From Escherichia coli (GTDB lineage: Bacteria > Pseudomonadota > Gammaproteobacteria > Enterobacterales > Enterobacteriaceae), in NCBI RefSeq assembly GCF_003334255.1, contig NZ_QOWU01000090.1: DNA of 9,233 bases; one strand, written 5' to 3'. Below are positions 1 to 9,233 of this stretch, in pieces; the stretch's first letter is position 1, and each line of letters opens with the position of its first letter. Under the pieces are notes generated by a model. The model saw only the letters and a program-made list of their open reading frames with translations. It was not told where the DNA came from and made no database searches. A program made the position numbers and the translations under genes.

Positions 1-76
1 AGTTATCGTGAGAGTAATTCATCGGCACGTTAAATCATATCAGGCGTAATACCACAACCCTTAAGTTAGCGCTTAT

Positions 77-96
77 GGGGGGAAGTCCCCCTTTTT
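77..96 (+). terminator. Possible intrinsic terminator ending a transcript that enters from the left edge
   Basis: GGGGG(77-81) / CCCCC(87-91) stem with 5-nt loop, immediately followed by TTTTT (92-96). The T-run is only on the + strand side. Short stem, so only moderate support. Confidence 0.4.
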
Positions 97-1029: not shown

Positions 1030-1363
1030 AATATACTCATTTGCCTTACTCATTTGATGGATTGAGTATAACGTACCGATAAAGTGTTTTACAAGGCTAA
1101 TCGGTATGGTTTTTACAGGGGGTTAGCTATACCTTTTTAGTATGCTATATCGGTATGCCTAAGAGATGGAGATGCCTTTACAGCAACTCACATAGAAAGT
1201 CAATAGATATTTGGCTTTTTTGCAAAGGGGGTCACATAGCTGGTGTGACGGGTACTTAGCAGGTATAGACCTGTGATAGATATTTTCGAAGATTCGGGGA
1301 AGATGAGATTCAAAGAGGGCTAGTCATTTTTTATAAAAATTTTCAGACTCTGAAAAGTTACTG

Positions 1364-1468
1364 TACAGATTTTATACAGATATCTTTAAAGTATCTGTAA
1401 AGACTTTTAAGATAAGAGATAGATATCCCAGAAAGGATATCCGTTTAGAAAACCTGTTAAGTATCTCT
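1364..1468. repeat. Cluster of dyad-symmetric elements in the recombinase / methyltransferase divergent intergenic region (candidate operators or recombinase binding sites)
   Basis: TACAGAT direct repeat (1364-1370, 1375-1381); 8-bp inverted arms TACAGATA (1375-1382) / TATCTGTA (1392-1399) with 9-bp spacer; GATATCC (1422-1428) / GGATATC (1435-1441) with 6-bp spacer; AGAGATA (1415-1421) / TATCTCT (1462-1468). Each alone could be chance; the clustering is the evidence. Confidence 0.4.
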
Positions 1469-1521
1469 TAAAAGAGAGTAAACCTTGTCAATAGTGATTG
1501 CAATAAAAATTTTTATTTCTT

Positions 1522-2184
1522 ATGTCAATTGAGCATATTTTAATCGGGAAACATCATGGGGGTTCTGATTACTGGAGAACTCCATTTCTTATATTCCGCA
1601 ATTTGCACCGTGAGTTTAGTTTCAGTCTGGATGGTGCTGCAACTGAGCATGACACGCTGTTACCACGATTCACCAATGATATTCACAATCAGTCATGGGA
1701 TGGTGAACGGGTGTTCTGTAACCCACCATACAGCGACACTAAAACATTCCTCCTAAAAGCCGCTGAAGCGGATTTAGCGGTATTCCTGATACCGTACCGA
1801 CCCCACACCACATACTGGCTTAAGCACCTCTTCACAAACCCGCTTTGCCATGAAATCCGTATTCTTCATCGTGCAGTTAAATACCTTCCACCAGCAGGGC
1901 ATAACGGGCTTGCTATTAGGTCACCGTTTGCAAGTGCAATTGTCATCTTTAAAACTGAGCCACGCAGACATGAAATTACGCAGATGATTTGCTGTGCTGA
2001 TACATTGCTACCGTTAACCATCATTAACAGAGGAGGCTTAAGAGGAAGACCCACCATTTACCCACCTGAGACGCTCGACAGCTTCATAAAGCTATACAGG
2101 CAAGGAAAACCCATTAAGTGCATTGCAGATGCTCTCAGAATGCCTCTGAGCACGTCATACAGGATTGCGCAAAGGTTGAGCTAA
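1522..2184 (+). CDS. Phage-type DNA N6-adenine methyltransferase (Dam-like, NPPY family) with a C-terminal resolvase-type helix-turn-helix
   Basis: N-terminal ~150 aa carry DYWRTP...FSLDGAATEH...RFT...WDGERVFCNPPYS...PFASAIVIF, the motif order of the phage Dam N6-adenine methyltransferase family (catalytic NPPY). The C-terminal ~55 aa, NRGGLRGRPTIYPPETLDSFIKLYRQGKPIKCIADALRMPLSTSYRIAQR, follow the GRP...HTH pattern of Hin/resolvase DNA-binding domains. No convincing SD precedes the ATG at 1522, so the start is uncertain. Confidence 0.8.
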   Translation: MSIEHILIGKHHGGSDYWRTPFLIFRNLHREFSFSLDGAATEHDTLLPRFTNDIHNQSWDGERVFCNPPYSDTKTFLLKAAEADLAVFLIPYRPHTTYWLKHLFTNPLCHEIRILHRAVKYLPPAGHNGLAIRSPFASAIVIFKTEPRRHEITQMICCADTLLPLTIINRGGLRGRPTIYPPETLDSFIKLYRQGKPIKCIADALRMPLSTSYRIAQRLS

Positions 2185-2550: not shown

Positions 2551-3489
2551 ATGTCTAAATATAACCCAAATCAGTTTTATAAATTTGATGTGCGAATCTC
2601 TCAGCTTTCAGAAGAAATTAACGCAGCAGCAAGATTAATTTATATGGTCATGGTTCATAGCTGTGATTTCTATGAAGAGAAGTACAAAGCATATTCACCA
2701 AGTATTGACCATCTAGCTTATATGGCTGGTGTTTCAAAGAGAACGGCAATCAGAGCTATTGAGACACTTGAGAAACACGGTTTAATTCAGGTGCAAAAGA
2801 ATCAGGGTCGTCAAAGCACTTATCGTGTATTCACACTGGATGATAAGCCGGAATTACTTGTAAGACCTACATCACAGGAAGTTGCAGCCTCAGTAAGACA
2901 AAATGACACCACTACCAGTGACAAAATGTCATCAGTACCAGTGACAAAATGTCATGGGGGTAGTGACAAAATGTCACCCGTGTTAGATAAGTTATTAGAT
3001 AAAACATTAGATAATAATATTATAGATAAGAGTAAAGATACTGAACTTGATGTTGGTATCAATGAAGATGATTTTCTTTCTTTGGATGAATTAAATGATT
3101 TTCTCTCTATGAATGAATCTGACCTTGATAGTGAAGCTACTAAAGAGACCTCTAAAACATCTGACTTAGAGGAAGATAAAATCTCTGATGTGAATGAAGT
3201 TAGTGACCAGCAAGATACACCTTGCCGCCTCGAATCAACTGATGATGAATTACCGGATGTTGACCTTGATGATGAAGAAGACCCTGAAGAGGAATTGAAA
3301 CGTGAACAGCGTAAAGCAGAAATTAAAGAAAGATTCAGAAAGGCAAAGCTAAAGAACAGGATTGATGAACTTGATGACTTTGATGATAGTGACGATGATT
3401 TTACTTTTACACCAAAAAAGAAAACTCACACCGAGCCAAAGAAAGAAAAAGTTAAAGTCAGACGTGTTTATGCTGGAGGAATGTTTTAA
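2551..3489 (+). CDS. Replication initiator, lambda O-like (N-terminal winged-helix DNA-binding region, iterons inside the gene, highly acidic C-terminal tail)
   Basis: SD GAGG at 2537-2540. N-terminal 100 aa (…IDHLAYMAGVSKRTAIRAIETLEKHGLIQV…STYRV) look like a winged-helix replication-initiator domain. The middle of the gene holds an iteron array plus an AT-rich tract. The C-terminus is low-complexity acidic (DDELPDVDLDDEEDPEE…DDFDDSDDD). The functional call rests on architecture and was not confirmed by a homology search. Confidence 0.65.
   Translation: MSKYNPNQFYKFDVRISQLSEEINAAARLIYMVMVHSCDFYEEKYKAYSPSIDHLAYMAGVSKRTAIRAIETLEKHGLIQVQKNQGRQSTYRVFTLDDKPELLVRPTSQEVAASVRQNDTTTSDKMSSVPVTKCHGGSDKMSPVLDKLLDKTLDNNIIDKSKDTELDVGINEDDFLSLDELNDFLSMNESDLDSEATKETSKTSDLEEDKISDVNEVSDQQDTPCRLESTDDELPDVDLDDEEDPEEELKREQRKAEIKERFRKAKLKNRIDELDDFDDSDDDFTFTPKKKTHTEPKKEKVKVRRVYAGGMF
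2894..2976. repeat. Iteron array: four copies of a ~15-bp dyad element (consensus AGTGACAAAATGTCA) at 22-23 bp spacing, inside the rep coding sequence
   Basis: Exact copies at 2917-2931, 2940-2954 and 2962-2976; a degenerate copy (11/15) at 2894-2908. Arms TGACA / TGTCA are inverted repeats. The period is not a multiple of 3, so the encoded peptide (SDKMSSVPVTKCHGGSDKMSPV) is not itself repeated; conservation is at the DNA level. Confidence 0.65.
2981..3060. other. AT-rich tract with phased TAGATAA repeats immediately after the iterons (candidate DNA-unwinding element of an embedded origin)
   Basis: TAGATAA at 2984, 2996, 3008 and 3023 (about 12-bp phase) within a very AT-rich stretch (gttagataagttattagataaaacattagataataatattatagataag). 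Position relative to the iterons mirrors the lambda origin layout. Confidence 0.45.
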
Positions 3490-5398: not shown

Positions 5399-5427
5399 TT
5401 GACAAATAACCTTAAGCATGGCATAAT
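5399..5427 (+). promoter_or_regulatory. Near-consensus sigma70 promoter (TTGACA, 17-bp spacer, CATAAT)
   Basis: TTGACA at 5399-5404, exactly 17 bp of spacer, CATAAT at 5422-5427. Predicted start near 5434-5436. A GGATAG / CTATCC hairpin sits at about +5 to +22 (5439-5456). Confidence 0.55.
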
Positions 5428-5622
5428 TGTATATATGAGGATAGTCTTCTATCCGAAGTCTATAGGAAGAGCAATTTTTCCTAAAATCATATTTTCAATA
5501 ATCCGATGGATGGATATTCTGAGTTGGAAAGGTGCAATGCTTTTCGTCATGGCCTTTCAGTTTAGTCTGAGAGGTCATCTCAAAAAGTGCTTAATCATTC
5601 ATTATTGAACCCTTACAGCTTT

Positions 5623-5652
5623 GCCCTAACTCATGATTAGGGCGTTTTCTTT
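5623..5652 (+). terminator. Intrinsic terminator
   Basis: GCCCTAA (5623-5629) / TTAGGGC (5637-5643) 7-bp stem with 7-nt loop, followed by GTTTTCTTT. Confidence 0.55.
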
Positions 5653-5723: not shown

Positions 5724-5756
5724 AGCCCTTCACAGATTATGTTTAGGGCTTTTCTT
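5724..5756 (+). terminator. Second, related terminator-like hairpin
   Basis: AGCCCT (5724-5729) / AGGGCT (5745-5750), extendable to 8 bp, with a 15-nt loop and TTTCTT tail. Sequence is related to the first terminator (…gccct…tagggc.ttttctt.a..agag). Confidence 0.4.
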
Positions 5757-5853
5757 AATAGAGCATCTTTAATAAATCGTTAAGTCATCTTCTAAGTGTA
5801 TTGGCGTTGAAGGTGCTCTATTAAGAAATAACCACACTTAGAGGAAAAAAATA

Positions 5854-6564
5854 ATGACAAACGATATTTACATTAATGGCAAAGTGATTGATAGCTTCGG
5901 TGACTGGTCACCACAGACTGAACATCCAGCTATCGCTATTCAGCGCAAAGAGCACGATGCGAGAATTGCACTTGAGCAATCGCTAAAGATGACACCAAAG
6001 GAAATTACCTTTGTGGCTCCTGAACCTCAAGAGATGCCCGATATTGGCAAAACTGAAGCATTATTTAATCTTGAGCGCGAATATTACCCACAGTTAAAAG
6101 AACAGCGCCTTAGATTAGATGACGCTTACAGCAAAGTTACCTTGATGCAATCAGCTATTGAGCCGTCAGAATTTGAGATTCAGGATGAATTGTCACAGAA
6201 ACCATTTGTCTATTACCAATACGAAGACAATGATGGTTTTGGTACTTTTCCAGAAAACATCACAGGCGTGATTAGTAGTCTTCCTGATGGATATCGAATT
6301 GTGAAGATGGTTAAAGCTTCAAGAGGTGCTGGTCAGTTTATTTACATGACCAATAAGAGCGATGAAGAACTCCGTGAAATTGCCAGACAGAACATCTTGG
6401 CATCACGTAACAAGCAACTTGAAAATGTTAAGTTGTATCTCTCAAGAGAGCTTCAGGCTATGAAAGAGCTTGTTAGTGAATATGAGTCGCAGAAGAAGAT
6501 TGCTATGCAAGCCGATATTGAGCAGCTTACGAAGATTTCTCAGAAGTATAGCAAAGCGATTTAA
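5854..6564 (+). CDS. Hypothetical 236-aa protein with a coiled-coil-like C-terminus
   Basis: SD GAGGAA at 5839-5844 with good spacing to the ATG at 5854. C-terminal third is rich in heptad-like E/K/Q/L. No recognisable catalytic motif. Confidence 0.7.
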   Translation: MTNDIYINGKVIDSFGDWSPQTEHPAIAIQRKEHDARIALEQSLKMTPKEITFVAPEPQEMPDIGKTEALFNLEREYYPQLKEQRLRLDDAYSKVTLMQSAIEPSEFEIQDELSQKPFVYYQYEDNDGFGTFPENITGVISSLPDGYRIVKMVKASRGAGQFIYMTNKSDEELREIARQNILASRNKQLENVKLYLSRELQAMKELVSEYESQKKIAMQADIEQLTKISQKYSKAI

Positions 6565-6580: not shown

Positions 6581-6796
6581 ATGATTGATTTGCAACAGCG
6601 TTATGAAACTATTAAGTCGGCTTGTGAAAACTTAAAGTTACAAACCAAGCCAGCCTTAAGAATTAAAACCAAACATCAAATTATCACCTCACACAAACCA
6701 AAAACACGCAAGATTCCAAAGTGGTGTATTGACCGTATTCCTTCTGATGCTCAAATCATAGGTGAAACGGAATTACATTATCTTGTCCGACATTAA
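6581..6796 (+). CDS. Hypothetical small basic protein (71 aa)
   Basis: SD GAGGTGAG at 6572-6579, ATG at 6581. The same frame stays open upstream and overlaps the last ~95 nt of the 236-aa gene in the +1 frame (ORF track 6470-6796). Confidence 0.45.
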   Translation: MIDLQQRYETIKSACENLKLQTKPALRIKTKHQIITSHKPKTRKIPKWCIDRIPSDAQIIGETELHYLVRH

Positions 6797-6823: not shown

Positions 6824-6866
6824 GGGAGAGATTATCGAGTGATATCGGTAGTTTCTCCCTTTTTTG
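6824..6866 (+). terminator. Intrinsic terminator
   Basis: GGGAGA (6824-6829) / TCTCCC (6854-6859) stem enclosing a structured loop, followed by a 6-T run (6860-6865). Confidence 0.65.
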
Positions 6867-6873
6867 TATGTGT

Positions 6874-6915
6874 GCTACGTGAAATCTTCTGAACAGATAT
6901 ACCCACCAAAAATTA
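6874..6915 (+). repeat. 42-bp intergenic direct repeat, copy 1 (upstream of the 688-aa gene)
   Basis: gctacgtgaaatcttctgaacagatatacccaccaaaaatta; 35/42 identical (ungapped) to 9113-9154, with the first 26 nt matching 24/26. Confidence 0.6.
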
Positions 6916-6956
6916 TTTTTTACGTAGCTCACGCTTAAAGAGGTGAAAAAATATGA

Positions 6957-9023
6957 ATGGCACAATTTAAAGTTGATGATTTTCTGATTGAGCTAGGTTT
7001 TAACTCTCAGAGGGTTTTAAAAGGTCTGGAAAAAGCCGAGAAACAAACGATGCAGGTAGCATCACGAATTGAGAAGCGATTGAATAAAGCTTTTAAAGTT
7101 AACCCTACGCCTTTAAATGATTCTCTCAAGGTCATGGAAAGAAATGTCGATAAAACTGTTTCCAAGATTGAGCAGCGTCTTAAAAACACTAAAGCGTTTA
7201 AGATTAAAACGGAAATTGAGGATACTTTAAAGCCACTTAGACAACCGAGACAGCCACGAATTAGCGGAAGCAGAGCAATTACAGCAGCGCATAGCGTGAA
7301 TATGAGCAAGCTTCGTGACTTTAATCCTATGCTTGAGAAGTATTTTAAAAGCCAGTATTACAGCTTAAGCAGTAAATCCAAGACACTTGGAAACGAAGCT
7401 TTTAATCGTGAGTTAGCAAAATTAAATCAATCTCTTCGTGAAACACTTTCTAAGTTTAACAAGACCACCAGCAAAAATAATCACAGTGAAAATGCTTCGA
7501 ATGGTCTGGATGTATTAGCTACGAGTGCAATCAAAGCAGGTACAGCCATTTATAGTTTTCAGACAGCCTTAGAAGCTTACAGGCGGATTATGGAGGTTGG
7601 TCTGAAAAAAGAAGCATCACAACGAGCGGCACAATTCGTTTTAGGTGATGAAGGTGCTAAACGAGCTACAGAATTTGTTAAGAATCTTGCTGATAGTAGT
7701 GGTGTAGACCAGATTGAAACATTAAGCAGTTTTGCTAAGTTTTCCGCTGGTGCTGGTGATATGAATGCAGACCAGAAAGAATCCTTATTTTCTAATGTGA
7801 TTGGTACATCCAGATTAATGGGGCTAAGCACCGATGAAATTAACGGGATTTTAAAAGCTTTCGAGCAGATGGCATCTAAAGGAAAGATTCAGGCTGAAGA
7901 GCTACGCGGTCAATTAGGTGACAGAATGGCAGGTGCTTTTCAGTTATTTGCCAGAAGTCTTGGGATGACTACGGAAGAATTAGACAAGGCTATGAAAGAC
8001 GGTAAGGTTCTTTCTAAAGATGTTCTCCCTAAAGTATCCGCTGAAATGGGAAAGATGATTGATAAAGCGGGAGGATGGGAAAAGATTATTAACTCTACTC
8101 AGACGCAGTTAGGCCGCTTAAGTAATTCATGGAATAATAATTTGGCCTTAATGTTCGATGGTTCACAGGAAGGTTTAACAGACTTTACAAGGTCACTGAC
8201 TAATTTACTTAATTCACTGGGTGGTCAATCTAAAAATCTTGGTGAACATTTTGGCGACTTGATGAAAAGCATGTCAAACGGTATTGATGATTTAACCACG
8301 ATTAGCTACCGAGTGCAGGGATTCTTTGACAGAGTGACCCTTGCTTACAGAGAATTAAATGACACTCAAAAAGCTGTAGCTGATGGTATCGCAAATGGCC
8401 TGTTAAGTGCATTAAAGGGACTTGCTGGTATTGTCGCTGTAAGGTCTGGTATTGGTGCTGTAGGTGGTATCTGGAACTTAATTAGGGCTATTTCCACGCT
8501 TGGGAATGTAGCAAATACAGCAGCAGGAAGAATTAATTCACGTTCTGGTGGTGTTGAAAGTGGAAAAAGTAGGCTATCTGTAGCTGATGCAATTACCAGA
8601 GTAATGATTGTCGGTATGACAACTGATGTGATTAATGCCATTGTCAAACCGTTCTATGAACGTCAGATGAGTAAGTCAGATAATCCGATTGATAAAGTTG
8701 TAAGGTCAAAGGTGGAACCCACAGACCAGGCATTAACTGGTGACATGAACTCTTTAGCCGCTGTTTTATGGGCTATGGTTCATGGCAAATCAAAAGATGT
8801 TCCACAGTTTTCACCTGAAGCATTAAATAATCTAAAAGGTCGAGTGGAAACATTCACACAAGATTTAAAGGTTATCAAGCCGTCAGTAAATATTCAGCCT
8901 CAGACAATCAATATCACAACTCAGACGGTACTTGATGGAAAGGTTATTGATGAAAGAACCACATCGCATATTAATCGTATGCAGGAAGATACCTTGATTA
9001 GCTCAGCTTACCCAGAGGAATAA
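6957..9023 (+). CDS. Tail tape-measure-like protein (688 aa)
   Basis: SD AGAGGTG at 6938-6944. Coiled-coil-like N-terminal region. Central segment …MASKGKIQAEELRGQLGDRMAGAFQLFARSLGMTTEELDKAMKDGKVLSKDVLPKVSAEM… (DNA about 7800-8050) matches the conserved pattern of the tape-measure N-terminal domain as I recall it. Followed by a Gly/Ala-rich hydrophobic stretch (GLLSALKGLAGIVAVRSGIGAVGGIWNLI). The coding call is strong; the product call is from motif memory, not a search. Confidence 0.75.
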   Translation: MAQFKVDDFLIELGFNSQRVLKGLEKAEKQTMQVASRIEKRLNKAFKVNPTPLNDSLKVMERNVDKTVSKIEQRLKNTKAFKIKTEIEDTLKPLRQPRQPRISGSRAITAAHSVNMSKLRDFNPMLEKYFKSQYYSLSSKSKTLGNEAFNRELAKLNQSLRETLSKFNKTTSKNNHSENASNGLDVLATSAIKAGTAIYSFQTALEAYRRIMEVGLKKEASQRAAQFVLGDEGAKRATEFVKNLADSSGVDQIETLSSFAKFSAGAGDMNADQKESLFSNVIGTSRLMGLSTDEINGILKAFEQMASKGKIQAEELRGQLGDRMAGAFQLFARSLGMTTEELDKAMKDGKVLSKDVLPKVSAEMGKMIDKAGGWEKIINSTQTQLGRLSNSWNNNLALMFDGSQEGLTDFTRSLTNLLNSLGGQSKNLGEHFGDLMKSMSNGIDDLTTISYRVQGFFDRVTLAYRELNDTQKAVADGIANGLLSALKGLAGIVAVRSGIGAVGGIWNLIRAISTLGNVANTAAGRINSRSGGVESGKSRLSVADAITRVMIVGMTTDVINAIVKPFYERQMSKSDNPIDKVVRSKVEPTDQALTGDMNSLAAVLWAMVHGKSKDVPQFSPEALNNLKGRVETFTQDLKVIKPSVNIQPQTINITTQTVLDGKVIDERTTSHINRMQEDTLISSAYPEE

Positions 9024-9112
9024 ACAATGTTAGAGCTACTAATATTTATTGCCACACATGGCAATCTATTAATCTTTATCTAGTATGACGATTCAACTAT
9101 GAATAGTCGAAT

Positions 9113-9154
9113 GCTACGTGATTTCTTCTGAACAGATACCAACATCAAAAATTA
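9113..9154 (+). repeat. 42-bp intergenic direct repeat, copy 2 (downstream of the 688-aa gene)
   Basis: gctacgtgatttcttctgaacagataccaacatcaaaaatta; see copy 1 at 6874-6915. Confidence 0.6.
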
Positions 9155-9233
9155 GATGAACCGCCCCGGGTTTCCTGGAGAGTGTTTTATCTGTGAACTC
9201 AGGCTGCCAGATCATTGTTTCCGATGGAAGCAT

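Follow-up and report, generated by a model that had tools for sequence, protein, structure and literature searches.

A tape measure protein gene in an Escherichia coli island that resembles a satellite of Felix-O1-like phages

Results

The locus

We analysed a 9,233-nucleotide stretch of Escherichia coli DNA (hereafter the window; contig NZ_QOWU01000090.1 of RefSeq assembly GCF_003334255.1), in which an open reading frame (ORF) for a 688-aa protein follows a replication initiator gene, a candidate small RNA and two orphan genes (Table 1). The initial annotation had described this protein as tape-measure-like and as standing in an atypical context, and had offered two explanations, namely an unusually organised structural module or a tape-measure-domain protein with a different role. 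Our comparison of the window with its intact relatives and with phage genomes points elsewhere. Judged by its sequence, the ORF encodes a tape measure protein (TMP) of the type found in Felix-O1-like phages (Ounavirinae), and it lies in an integrative island of about 11 kb which probably behaves like a satellite of these phages.

Table 1. Features of the window, in order of position.
Feature	Coordinates	Strand	Evidence or remarks
End of IS4-family (IS421/IS186-like) insertion sequence (IS), ends contig on left	1..79	.	assigned by elimination
Small serine recombinase (resolvase/invertase type), 188 aa	487..1053	-	phrog_125, E 1.2e-58
Segment similar to right boundary of phage direct terminal repeat	1207..1375	+	aligns to Felix O1 13288-13452
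Felix-O1-type promoter (CT(A/C)TTGACAAGGT) and ~50-nt leader element	1385..1512	-	63 nt, 84-86% identity to Felix O1 21578-21640
DNA N6-adenine methyltransferase	1522..2184	+	phrog_111, E 1.2e-25; RefSeq annotation of relatives
Replication initiator (lambda O-like / DnaD-like winged helix)	2551..3489	+	PHROG replication-initiation families, E down to 2.4e-10
Candidate ~215-nt small RNA, own promoter and terminator	5399..5650	+	TTGACA-17-CATAAT with TG; terminator 5622-5644
o236, orphan 236-aa coiled-coil protein	5854..6564	+	gene order conserved, always upstream of TMP
o71, 71-aa basic protein (pI 9.8) between o236 and TMP	6581..6796	+	position conserved
Intrinsic terminator closing o236-o71 unit	6824..6865	+	stem 6824-6859, then T run; 15-pair stem, 6 G-C; conserved in relatives L001 and L002
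Cassette (GCTACGTG-N40-ACGTAGC, then CTCACGCTTAA)	6873..6939	+	direct repeat D1; 29 nt upstream of TMP start
TMP gene, island allele of Ounavirinae TMP	6957..9023	+	688 aa; Pfam, PHROG, NCBIfam, Felix O1 ORF67, PDB 9ndy_F
Second cassette copy, truncated here; precedes tube-initiator gene in relatives	9112..9154	+	84% identical to 6873-6915
End of IS3-family (IS629-like) IS, cuts cassette, ends contig	9155..9233	.	9146-9233 match IS629-annotated DNA

The tape measure protein

Searches with hidden Markov models bore out the tape-measure likeness of the 688-aa protein. It is matched strongly by Pfam TMP_3 (PF20155, residues 229-396, E 9.5e-21), by TIGR02675 'tape_meas_nterm' (residues 287-355, 60.6 bits at a cut-off of 21.35) and by 11 PHROG families annotated as TMP, the best of which is phrog_4036 'tail length tape measure protein' (E 3.8e-93). 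The conserved N-terminal tape-measure domain that had been suspected initially is thus present as far as the TIGR02675 match goes; its position is another matter, as residues 287-355 put this 'N-terminal' domain in the middle of the island protein.

The closest relatives are found in Felix-O1-like phages. Felix O1 ORF67 (742 aa) aligns with the island protein from end to end (residues 1-688 to 1-741, 29% identity, E 5e-78), and the homology also backs the start codon (MAQFKVDDF... versus MAQYTVDSF... in Felix O1). The TMP gp17 of the Felixounavirus Bas63 (PDB 9ndy_F) is matched with an E value of 1.7e-74. Moreover, a tblastn search of 50,697 phage records returned full-length matches at 28-29% identity, with Felix-O1-type phages filling all top ranks. 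Conservation relative to the phage TMP is concentrated in three stretches: residues 1-50 (56-60% identity), residues 301-360, which correspond to the TIGR02675 motif and are up to 92% identical, and the C-terminal 13 residues, 10 of which are identical (77%). Outside these stretches, identity drops to 16-30%. In the Bas63 virion, the last 25 residues of the TMP contact the hub and the puncture protein (PMC12609058). On this sequence evidence, the ORF product is a genuine full-length tail TMP, a colinear orthologue of the Ounavirinae TMP which retains its N-terminus, its central motif and its hub-docking C-terminus.

The Gly-rich hydrophobic segments mentioned in the initial annotation are also there, at about residues 473-520 and 540-567, with 17% Gly in residues 471-545. 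Such segments are typical of the membrane-inserting part of TMPs, and the TMPs of other phages can have channel-forming, muralytic or polymerase activities (reviewed in PMC12609058). One could therefore imagine a TMP-derived protein which works independently of any phage tail, as a membrane channel, as a DNA-entry pilot or in a muralytic or lysis function. We consider such a role very improbable, since neither Pfam nor NCBIfam models detected an extra enzymatic domain in the protein, since it is colinear with the phage TMP from the first to the last residue including the hub-contacting C-terminus, and since its constant pairing with a tube initiator under the same type of cassette (see below) makes sense only in a tail. 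The second of the two initial explanations accordingly does not quite fit a protein that corresponds to the Ounavirinae TMP over its full length.

Among the island relatives described below, TMP alleles are extremely diverse (41-97% identity, 679-716 aa) and mosaic relative to the neighbouring genes, and all of them are shorter than the 742-aa phage protein. Their dN/dS values of 0.12-0.37 reveal purifying selection along the whole length. At the DNA level, at least 80% of the window allele is covered in 113 of the 455 complete E. coli genomes that match the TMP region, while what is widely conserved is its 5' end together with the cassette upstream. The type strain of E. albertii, NBRC 107761, has two TMP alleles (L018 and L019) with 96% and 53% identity to the window protein, which implies that its genome harbours two islands. 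Up to 4-5 matching places occur in some E. coli genomes.

The tube initiator and the cassettes

In every intact relative the TMP gene is followed by a second tail gene, so the wider locus is not devoid of them. Its 256-aa product, annotated as 'phage baseplate protein', is 68% identical to Felix O1 ORF68, whose gene lies directly 3' of the TMP gene in the phage as well, and up to 73.6% identical to other Ounavirinae proteins. It also matches the Bas63 tube initiator gp18 (9ndy_A, E 5e-108). Among islands, the tube initiator is under purifying selection (dN/dS 0.07-0.25), and in the intact relatives it is always paired with the island TMP under the same cassette type. No other island protein has a counterpart in Felix O1 by tblastn. 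The only two genes which island and phage have in common therefore encode the two proteins which rest on the hub of the baseplate and serve as template for the tail tube. A stretch of 32 residues is identical between the tube initiator of the intact relative L001 (21021-21791) and Felix O1 ORF68, which suggests a recent exchange or a very constrained interface.

The repeat that had been noticed on both sides of the TMP gene is real: 43 nt at 6873-6915 and 9112-9154 form the top direct-repeat family of the window. In intact relatives it corresponds to a cassette of 55-67 nt ahead of both the TMP and the tube-initiator gene. The distance from cassette to start codon is 29-30 nt, sometimes 70-91 nt, and measures 30 nt before the tube initiator in L001 and in a second intact relative, L002. 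Both half-sites and their 40-nt spacing are invariant in every copy detected by a scan that demanded both half-sites and was thus blind to degenerate copies; the inner 40 nt can differ. We presume that the cassette acts as a promoter/operator. A phage-like promoter within the cassettes was considered and rejected, as they show no similarity to any Felix O1 sequence. The inverted repeat of the cassette could also pair as an RNA hairpin; its fold z-score is only -1.5 and, because the pairs are invariant, there is no covariation.

The complete island and its circular form

The intact relatives of the window are compact islands of ~11 kb with a conserved order: a variable slot that often holds a small serine recombinase gene, the adenine methyltransferase gene (only in the copies closest to the window), the replication initiator gene, orphan small genes, o236, o71, the TMP gene, the gene for the 256-aa baseplate protein and a large serine recombinase gene. 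The latter is found at either end of the integrated island and is absent from the window itself; recombinases of different islands are only about 33% identical. Four or more insertion sites are used, including yciI/tonB, lafU/dinB and positions inside yecE and inside wrbA. At wrbA, the island end provides the gene with a new start codon and N-terminus, MSVKARILVLYYSMYGH....

The two ends of L030, an 11,233-bp contig from a gut metagenome, overlap by 55 nt, and the contig joins the right end of the island to its left end. This junction lies exactly where a 99.96% identical integrated copy (L047; 8261-8480) runs into wrbA. Taken together, the overlap and the right-to-left junction indicate that L030 represents the closed circular form of the island with its attP junction.

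The island family is widespread. Of 5426 complete E. coli genomes, 569 contain relatives that are 80-95% identical to the window interior, in each case in the chromosome, and the TMP region alone is matched in 455, so that roughly 8-10% of complete E. coli genomes carry an island. Strains E24377A, UMNK88 and GB089 are among the carriers. The family is also present in Salmonella and, twice, in the E. albertii type strain. A scan of genome contigs gave only Escherichia loci, although with the two peptide patterns that were used this is weak evidence of absence elsewhere. The GC content of the island, ~39% compared to ~51% for the host, is phage-like.

Complete islands are flanked directly by core genes, without other phage structural or lysis genes. 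Among the island ORFs, no capsid, terminase, tube, sheath, fibre or lysis family was matched in PHROG, Pfam, NCBIfam or the annotations of complete islands. Likewise, the hallmark genes of known satellites, namely psu, sid, delta and alpha of P4, alpA, pri-rep, terS and capsid-redirection genes of PICIs and capsid, portal and protease genes of cf-PICIs, had no PHROG, Pfam or NCBIfam match in island ORFs. A search of PADLOC-DB 2.0 gave no match for the TMP, the tube initiator, o236, o71 or the other small ORFs and only weak HTH-type matches for the initiator. Because the TMP and the tube initiator are the only structural genes in complete copies, the locus is not an unusually organised phage module, as had been considered initially.

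A further possibility is that the two tail genes are leftovers of an ordinary prophage tail module that is decaying and has lost its other genes. IS elements do flank the window and cut its downstream cassette, and RefSeq annotates only a 'tape measure protein' and a 'phage baseplate protein' in this region. We nevertheless regard this as exceedingly unlikely. Hundreds of genomes share the same ~11 kb layout, inserted at four or more sites; the ORFs are intact, dN/dS values lie well below 1, a circular form exists, and no pseudogenised structural genes are present according to PHROG and tblastn against Felix O1. Moreover, the only phage relatives are virulent Ounavirinae. Genome reports class Felix-O1-like phages as lytic and devoid of temperate marker genes; the island is therefore not a prophage fragment.

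Non-coding similarities to Felix-O1-like phages

Links to Felix-O1-like phages are also found in the non-coding DNA. According to genome reports, felixounaviruses package genomes with direct terminal repeats. The terminal repeat of phage Ro111lw comprises 613 bp and maps to Felix O1 12771-13339, and its left boundary coincides with the start of several other records. When placed on this map, the island segment 1207-1375 spans the right edge of the repeat, which would fall at about 1240-1260 of the window. Of the 18 loci scanned, 14 have a match in this part of the phage genome (about Felix O1 13283-13467), and six loci also match the interior of the repeat. We consider this look-alike of the terminal-repeat boundary a candidate packaging signal. 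In addition, the leader element on the minus strand, which follows the early Felix-type promoter at about 1500, matches 253 phage records, essentially all of them Felix-O1-like (Ounavirinae); in the phages it is located just upstream of the ORF41 homologue.

Genes upstream of the tape measure gene and other elements of the window

The 236-aa coiled-coil protein, the 71-aa basic protein and the strong terminator that had been noted upstream of the TMP gene are all present. In agreement with the initial observation that no major tail protein or chaperone pair precedes the TMP, we found no tube, sheath or chaperone gene ahead of it with PHROG, Pfam or BLAST against Felix O1. The AlphaFold2 (AF2) model of o236 (pLDDT 79) predicts a long antiparallel coiled coil with a small alpha/beta domain, for which no PDB match better than E 0.26 was obtained, and the protein has no Pfam, PHROG or PADLOC match. 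Its relatives (3082 close clusters; 24 representatives at the 50% level among 1.8 billion proteins) are essentially confined to the island family. Many database entries name o236 a 'transposase', a name without support from Pfam, PHROG or NCBIfam. Just upstream of its start codon lies a 22-nt inverted repeat (5751-5772 / 5807-5828, 91% complementary, 34-nt loop), which may serve as an operator or attenuator of the late block. For o71, there is no match in PHROG, PADLOC, NCBIfam or Pfam and no similarity to the Felix O1 chaperone ORF66. The idea that o236 and o71 are tail assembly chaperones was rejected, as they have no BLAST similarity to Felix O1 ORF65/66 and no family match, and the o236 model has no fold match.

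The replication initiator gene contains four tandem iterons of ~22 nt (AGTGACAAAATGTCA...; repeats D3 and D9) at 2894-2981 within its ORF, as is the case in lambda O, and we infer that they constitute the replication origin. The C-terminal third of the initiator is very acidic. The small serine recombinase gene lies in a variable slot (350-1194) which is not conserved in L001 or L002: L001 has a different recombinase on the plus strand and L002 none annotated, while GB089 has an extra 227-aa ORF there. Short words recur in the non-coding left part (100-480 and 1070-1160), where CTATGCAG occurs four times or more and CGGTAT(A/G)G several times, perhaps as binding sites of the recombinase or the initiator.

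The candidate small RNA would span 5434-5650 and has a near-consensus sigma-70 promoter and a fold z-score of -3.3. Its promoter and three hairpins are kept in 14 islands, and 7 of its 26 consensus pairs show compensatory changes. A search of Rfam gave no match. The 69-aa ORF listed at this position is probably not a gene. Homology of the window ORF o96 to an HNH_3 protein of a Salmonella island was considered and rejected.

The window as a broken copy

Island homology begins at about position 123 on the left and ends at 9157 on the right. Both window ends (1-79 and 9146-9233) match IS ends in thousands of plasmids and Stx phages, and the plasmid matches lie under IS3-family and IS421-family transposase annotations. 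Positions 9146-9233 are 96-100% identical to DNA of Stx phages and plasmids that is annotated as IS3-family/IS629, and the left IS end adjoins a GGGGGAAGTCCCCC site. The exact o236 protein was found on 8 contigs, the longest of which measures only 9.7 kb. With IS ends on both sides and such short contigs, the window is very likely a short-read contig broken in IS copies. The second cassette is cut by the IS at 9155, and the tube-initiator gene, if still present, is separated from it; for this reason, the island copy in this genome may be impaired or disabled.

Discussion

Our analysis assigns the TMP gene to an integrative, self-replicating island of ~11 kb, and we think it probable that this island exploits virulent Felix-O1-like myophages in the manner of a satellite and builds chimeric tails. 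The identity of the two tail proteins, their synteny, distribution and selection, the circular form and the mimicry of phage DNA were observed, while induction, co-assembly, packaging and transfer by a helper phage would follow the precedent of PLE. The PLE of Vibrio cholerae is a satellite of the virulent myophage ICP1 and integrates by means of a large serine recombinase (Mathur, Boyd et al., Nature 2026, PMC12987554). Its tail operon encodes a chaperone (TAC), a TMP and a baseplate hub protein (BhuB) with 19-41% identity to their ICP1 counterparts; in PLE particles the TMP and the hub come from PLE and the rest of the tail from ICP1, these tails are 10 nm shorter as predicted from the shorter TMP, and deletion of the PLE tmp gene lowers transduction about 1000-fold (PMC12987554).

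Like PLE, the island is small, carries a large serine recombinase and its own replication initiator and has a virulent myophage as its presumed helper. Both encode their own shorter and divergent TMP along with a baseplate-core protein (19-41% identity to the phage proteins for PLE; 29% and 68% for the island) and lack tube, sheath and fibre genes. In contrast to PLE, the hosts of the island are Escherichia and Salmonella, the putative helpers belong to the Ounavirinae and the second tail gene encodes a tube initiator instead of a hub protein. Furthermore, we recognised neither a chaperone nor a capsid scaffold (TcaP) or Rta-like gene in the island, which at ~11 kb is smaller than PLE. Apart from generic functions the gene content differs, and the likeness concerns the way of working; we do not claim membership of the PLE family.

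The comparison with the phages themselves leads to a similar picture. As in Bas63 (gp17-gp18; PDB 9ndy, PMC12609058) and Felix O1 (ORF67-ORF68), the two tail genes stand in the same order and are colinear with their counterparts, and the termini of the TMP as well as its TIGR02675 motif are conserved. The island TMP is only 26-31% identical to Ounavirinae TMPs and 26-63 aa shorter. Unlike in the phages, each of the two genes follows a promoter-like cassette of its own and lies in a bacterial island, with no chaperone, tube, sheath or hub genes around them.

Based on the PLE precedent, we suggest the following scenario. Infection by a Felix-O1-like phage would activate the island, which would excise and replicate. 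The TMP and the tube initiator would then be expressed from their two matching cassettes and dock on phage-made hubs, the former via its C-terminus and the latter via its tube-like domain. Phage tube and sheath proteins would polymerise around the island TMP to give chimeric tails. Because the island TMP has 688 residues compared to 742 in the phage, these tails should be ~8 nm shorter (54 residues x about 1.5 Å), corresponding to roughly two of 26 discs. The phage terminase would recognise the island DNA through the mimic of the terminal-repeat boundary, and the chimeric tails would serve the particles that contain island DNA. At the same time, the island tail proteins would divert tail assembly from the phage.

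How an 11 kb element could fill a head of ~87 kb is suggested by the PICMI satellites of virulent vibriophages, which are packaged as concatemers according to the part of their description considered here (PMC10803314). As portrayed there, PICMIs resemble the island in being very small, in having no capsid-remodelling genes and in exploiting a virulent helper; they differ in their reduced gene content, and tail genes are not mentioned in that part of the account. By analogy, concatemer packaging is a plausible route for the island. Eight copies of a unit of 11.1-11.2 kb would amount to 89 kb, compared to helper genomes of 87-89 kb, a fit which on its own is not statistically meaningful.

Several observations weigh against a satellite of Felix-O1-like phages. 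The similarity to the terminal repeat is short (40-170 nt at 68-96% identity) and covers the right boundary and some interior segments only, and the promoter/leader look-alike is present in only a subset of islands and absent from many. The cassettes have no counterpart in Felix O1 beyond chance 10-13-mers, and their half-site words are no more frequent there than expected. Neither sequence searches nor the fold of o236, the ORF that was modelled, revealed a tail assembly chaperone in the island, nor is there a recognisable gene for capsid size or for redirecting the terminase. The circularity of L030 could in principle reflect a tandem duplication. Finally, neither concatemers or tandem copies among the IMG/VR loci nor island sequence in deposited phage records were found.

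The absence of any recognised packaging or capsid-remodelling gene (PHROG, Pfam) would also fit a defence system in which the TMP and the tube initiator act as decoys, that is as dominant-negative copies that dock on the hub and poison phage tails. The island would then protect the bacterial population without being transferred by the phage and would spread by other means. The island TMP indeed keeps only the docking ends and the central motif, with 16-30% identity over the rest; hypervariable and mosaic alleles are what one expects of an arms race. Interference with tail assembly is, moreover, a known defence of mobile elements, as exemplified by Tai, which is found in PICIs and prophages (PMC11364771), and by Rta of PLE11. 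These functions are aimed at phage tail assembly as those of the island might be, but Tai and Rta are small inhibitors that bind a phage tail component, whereas the island carries structural homologues of such components. We consider defence without transfer unlikely. A decoy has no obvious need for a full-length TMP of conserved size that is under purifying selection along its whole length, and the replication module would be left unexplained, as would the terminal-repeat-boundary look-alike, which is kept across island variants. In addition, no PADLOC model matches. Poisoning of phage tails is also compatible with a satellite lifestyle, since PLE does both.

Satellites that encode a TMP have been noted before, tmp genes being reported only from Vibrio PLE-like elements and some cf-PICIs (PMC12987554). 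The tmp-carrying cf-PICIs and the EPIP satellites of Mycolicibacterium (preprint) resemble the island in that they are reported or predicted to encode a TMP. They differ from it in having capsid, connector or small-terminase genes and temperate helpers, whereas the island has no such genes and its phage relatives are virulent. It is possible, though we would stop short of calling it probable, that the islands form a widespread Escherichia/Salmonella satellite family which swaps both tail-core proteins, is packaged via the boundary mimic (probably as concatemers of about eight copies), uses its own small RNA and cassette promoters and has invented the PLE strategy independently.

So far, the strategy of a satellite-encoded tape measure has been demonstrated experimentally only for PLE (PMC12987554). 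In the literature, we found no description of a satellite of Felix O1 or other Ounavirinae, nor of the island. The island, its host range and its helper family thus appear to be new, while the working principle is already known from PLE. Felix-O1-like phages are classical Salmonella typing phages and have been widely proposed for biocontrol and therapy. If our interpretation is correct, such applications would have to reckon with an island in about 10% of E. coli strains that exploits or sabotages the tails of these phages, with effects on host range, phage yield and gene transfer. It would also mean that satellite tape measures arose independently in enterobacteria. Moreover, the question why a satellite needs its own tape measure could be addressed in E. 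coli by means of the BASEL phage Bas63, for which the structure of tail and baseplate has been solved. The TMP alleles of 679-716 aa represent natural variants for studying how the length and sequence of a TMP set tail length and compatibility.

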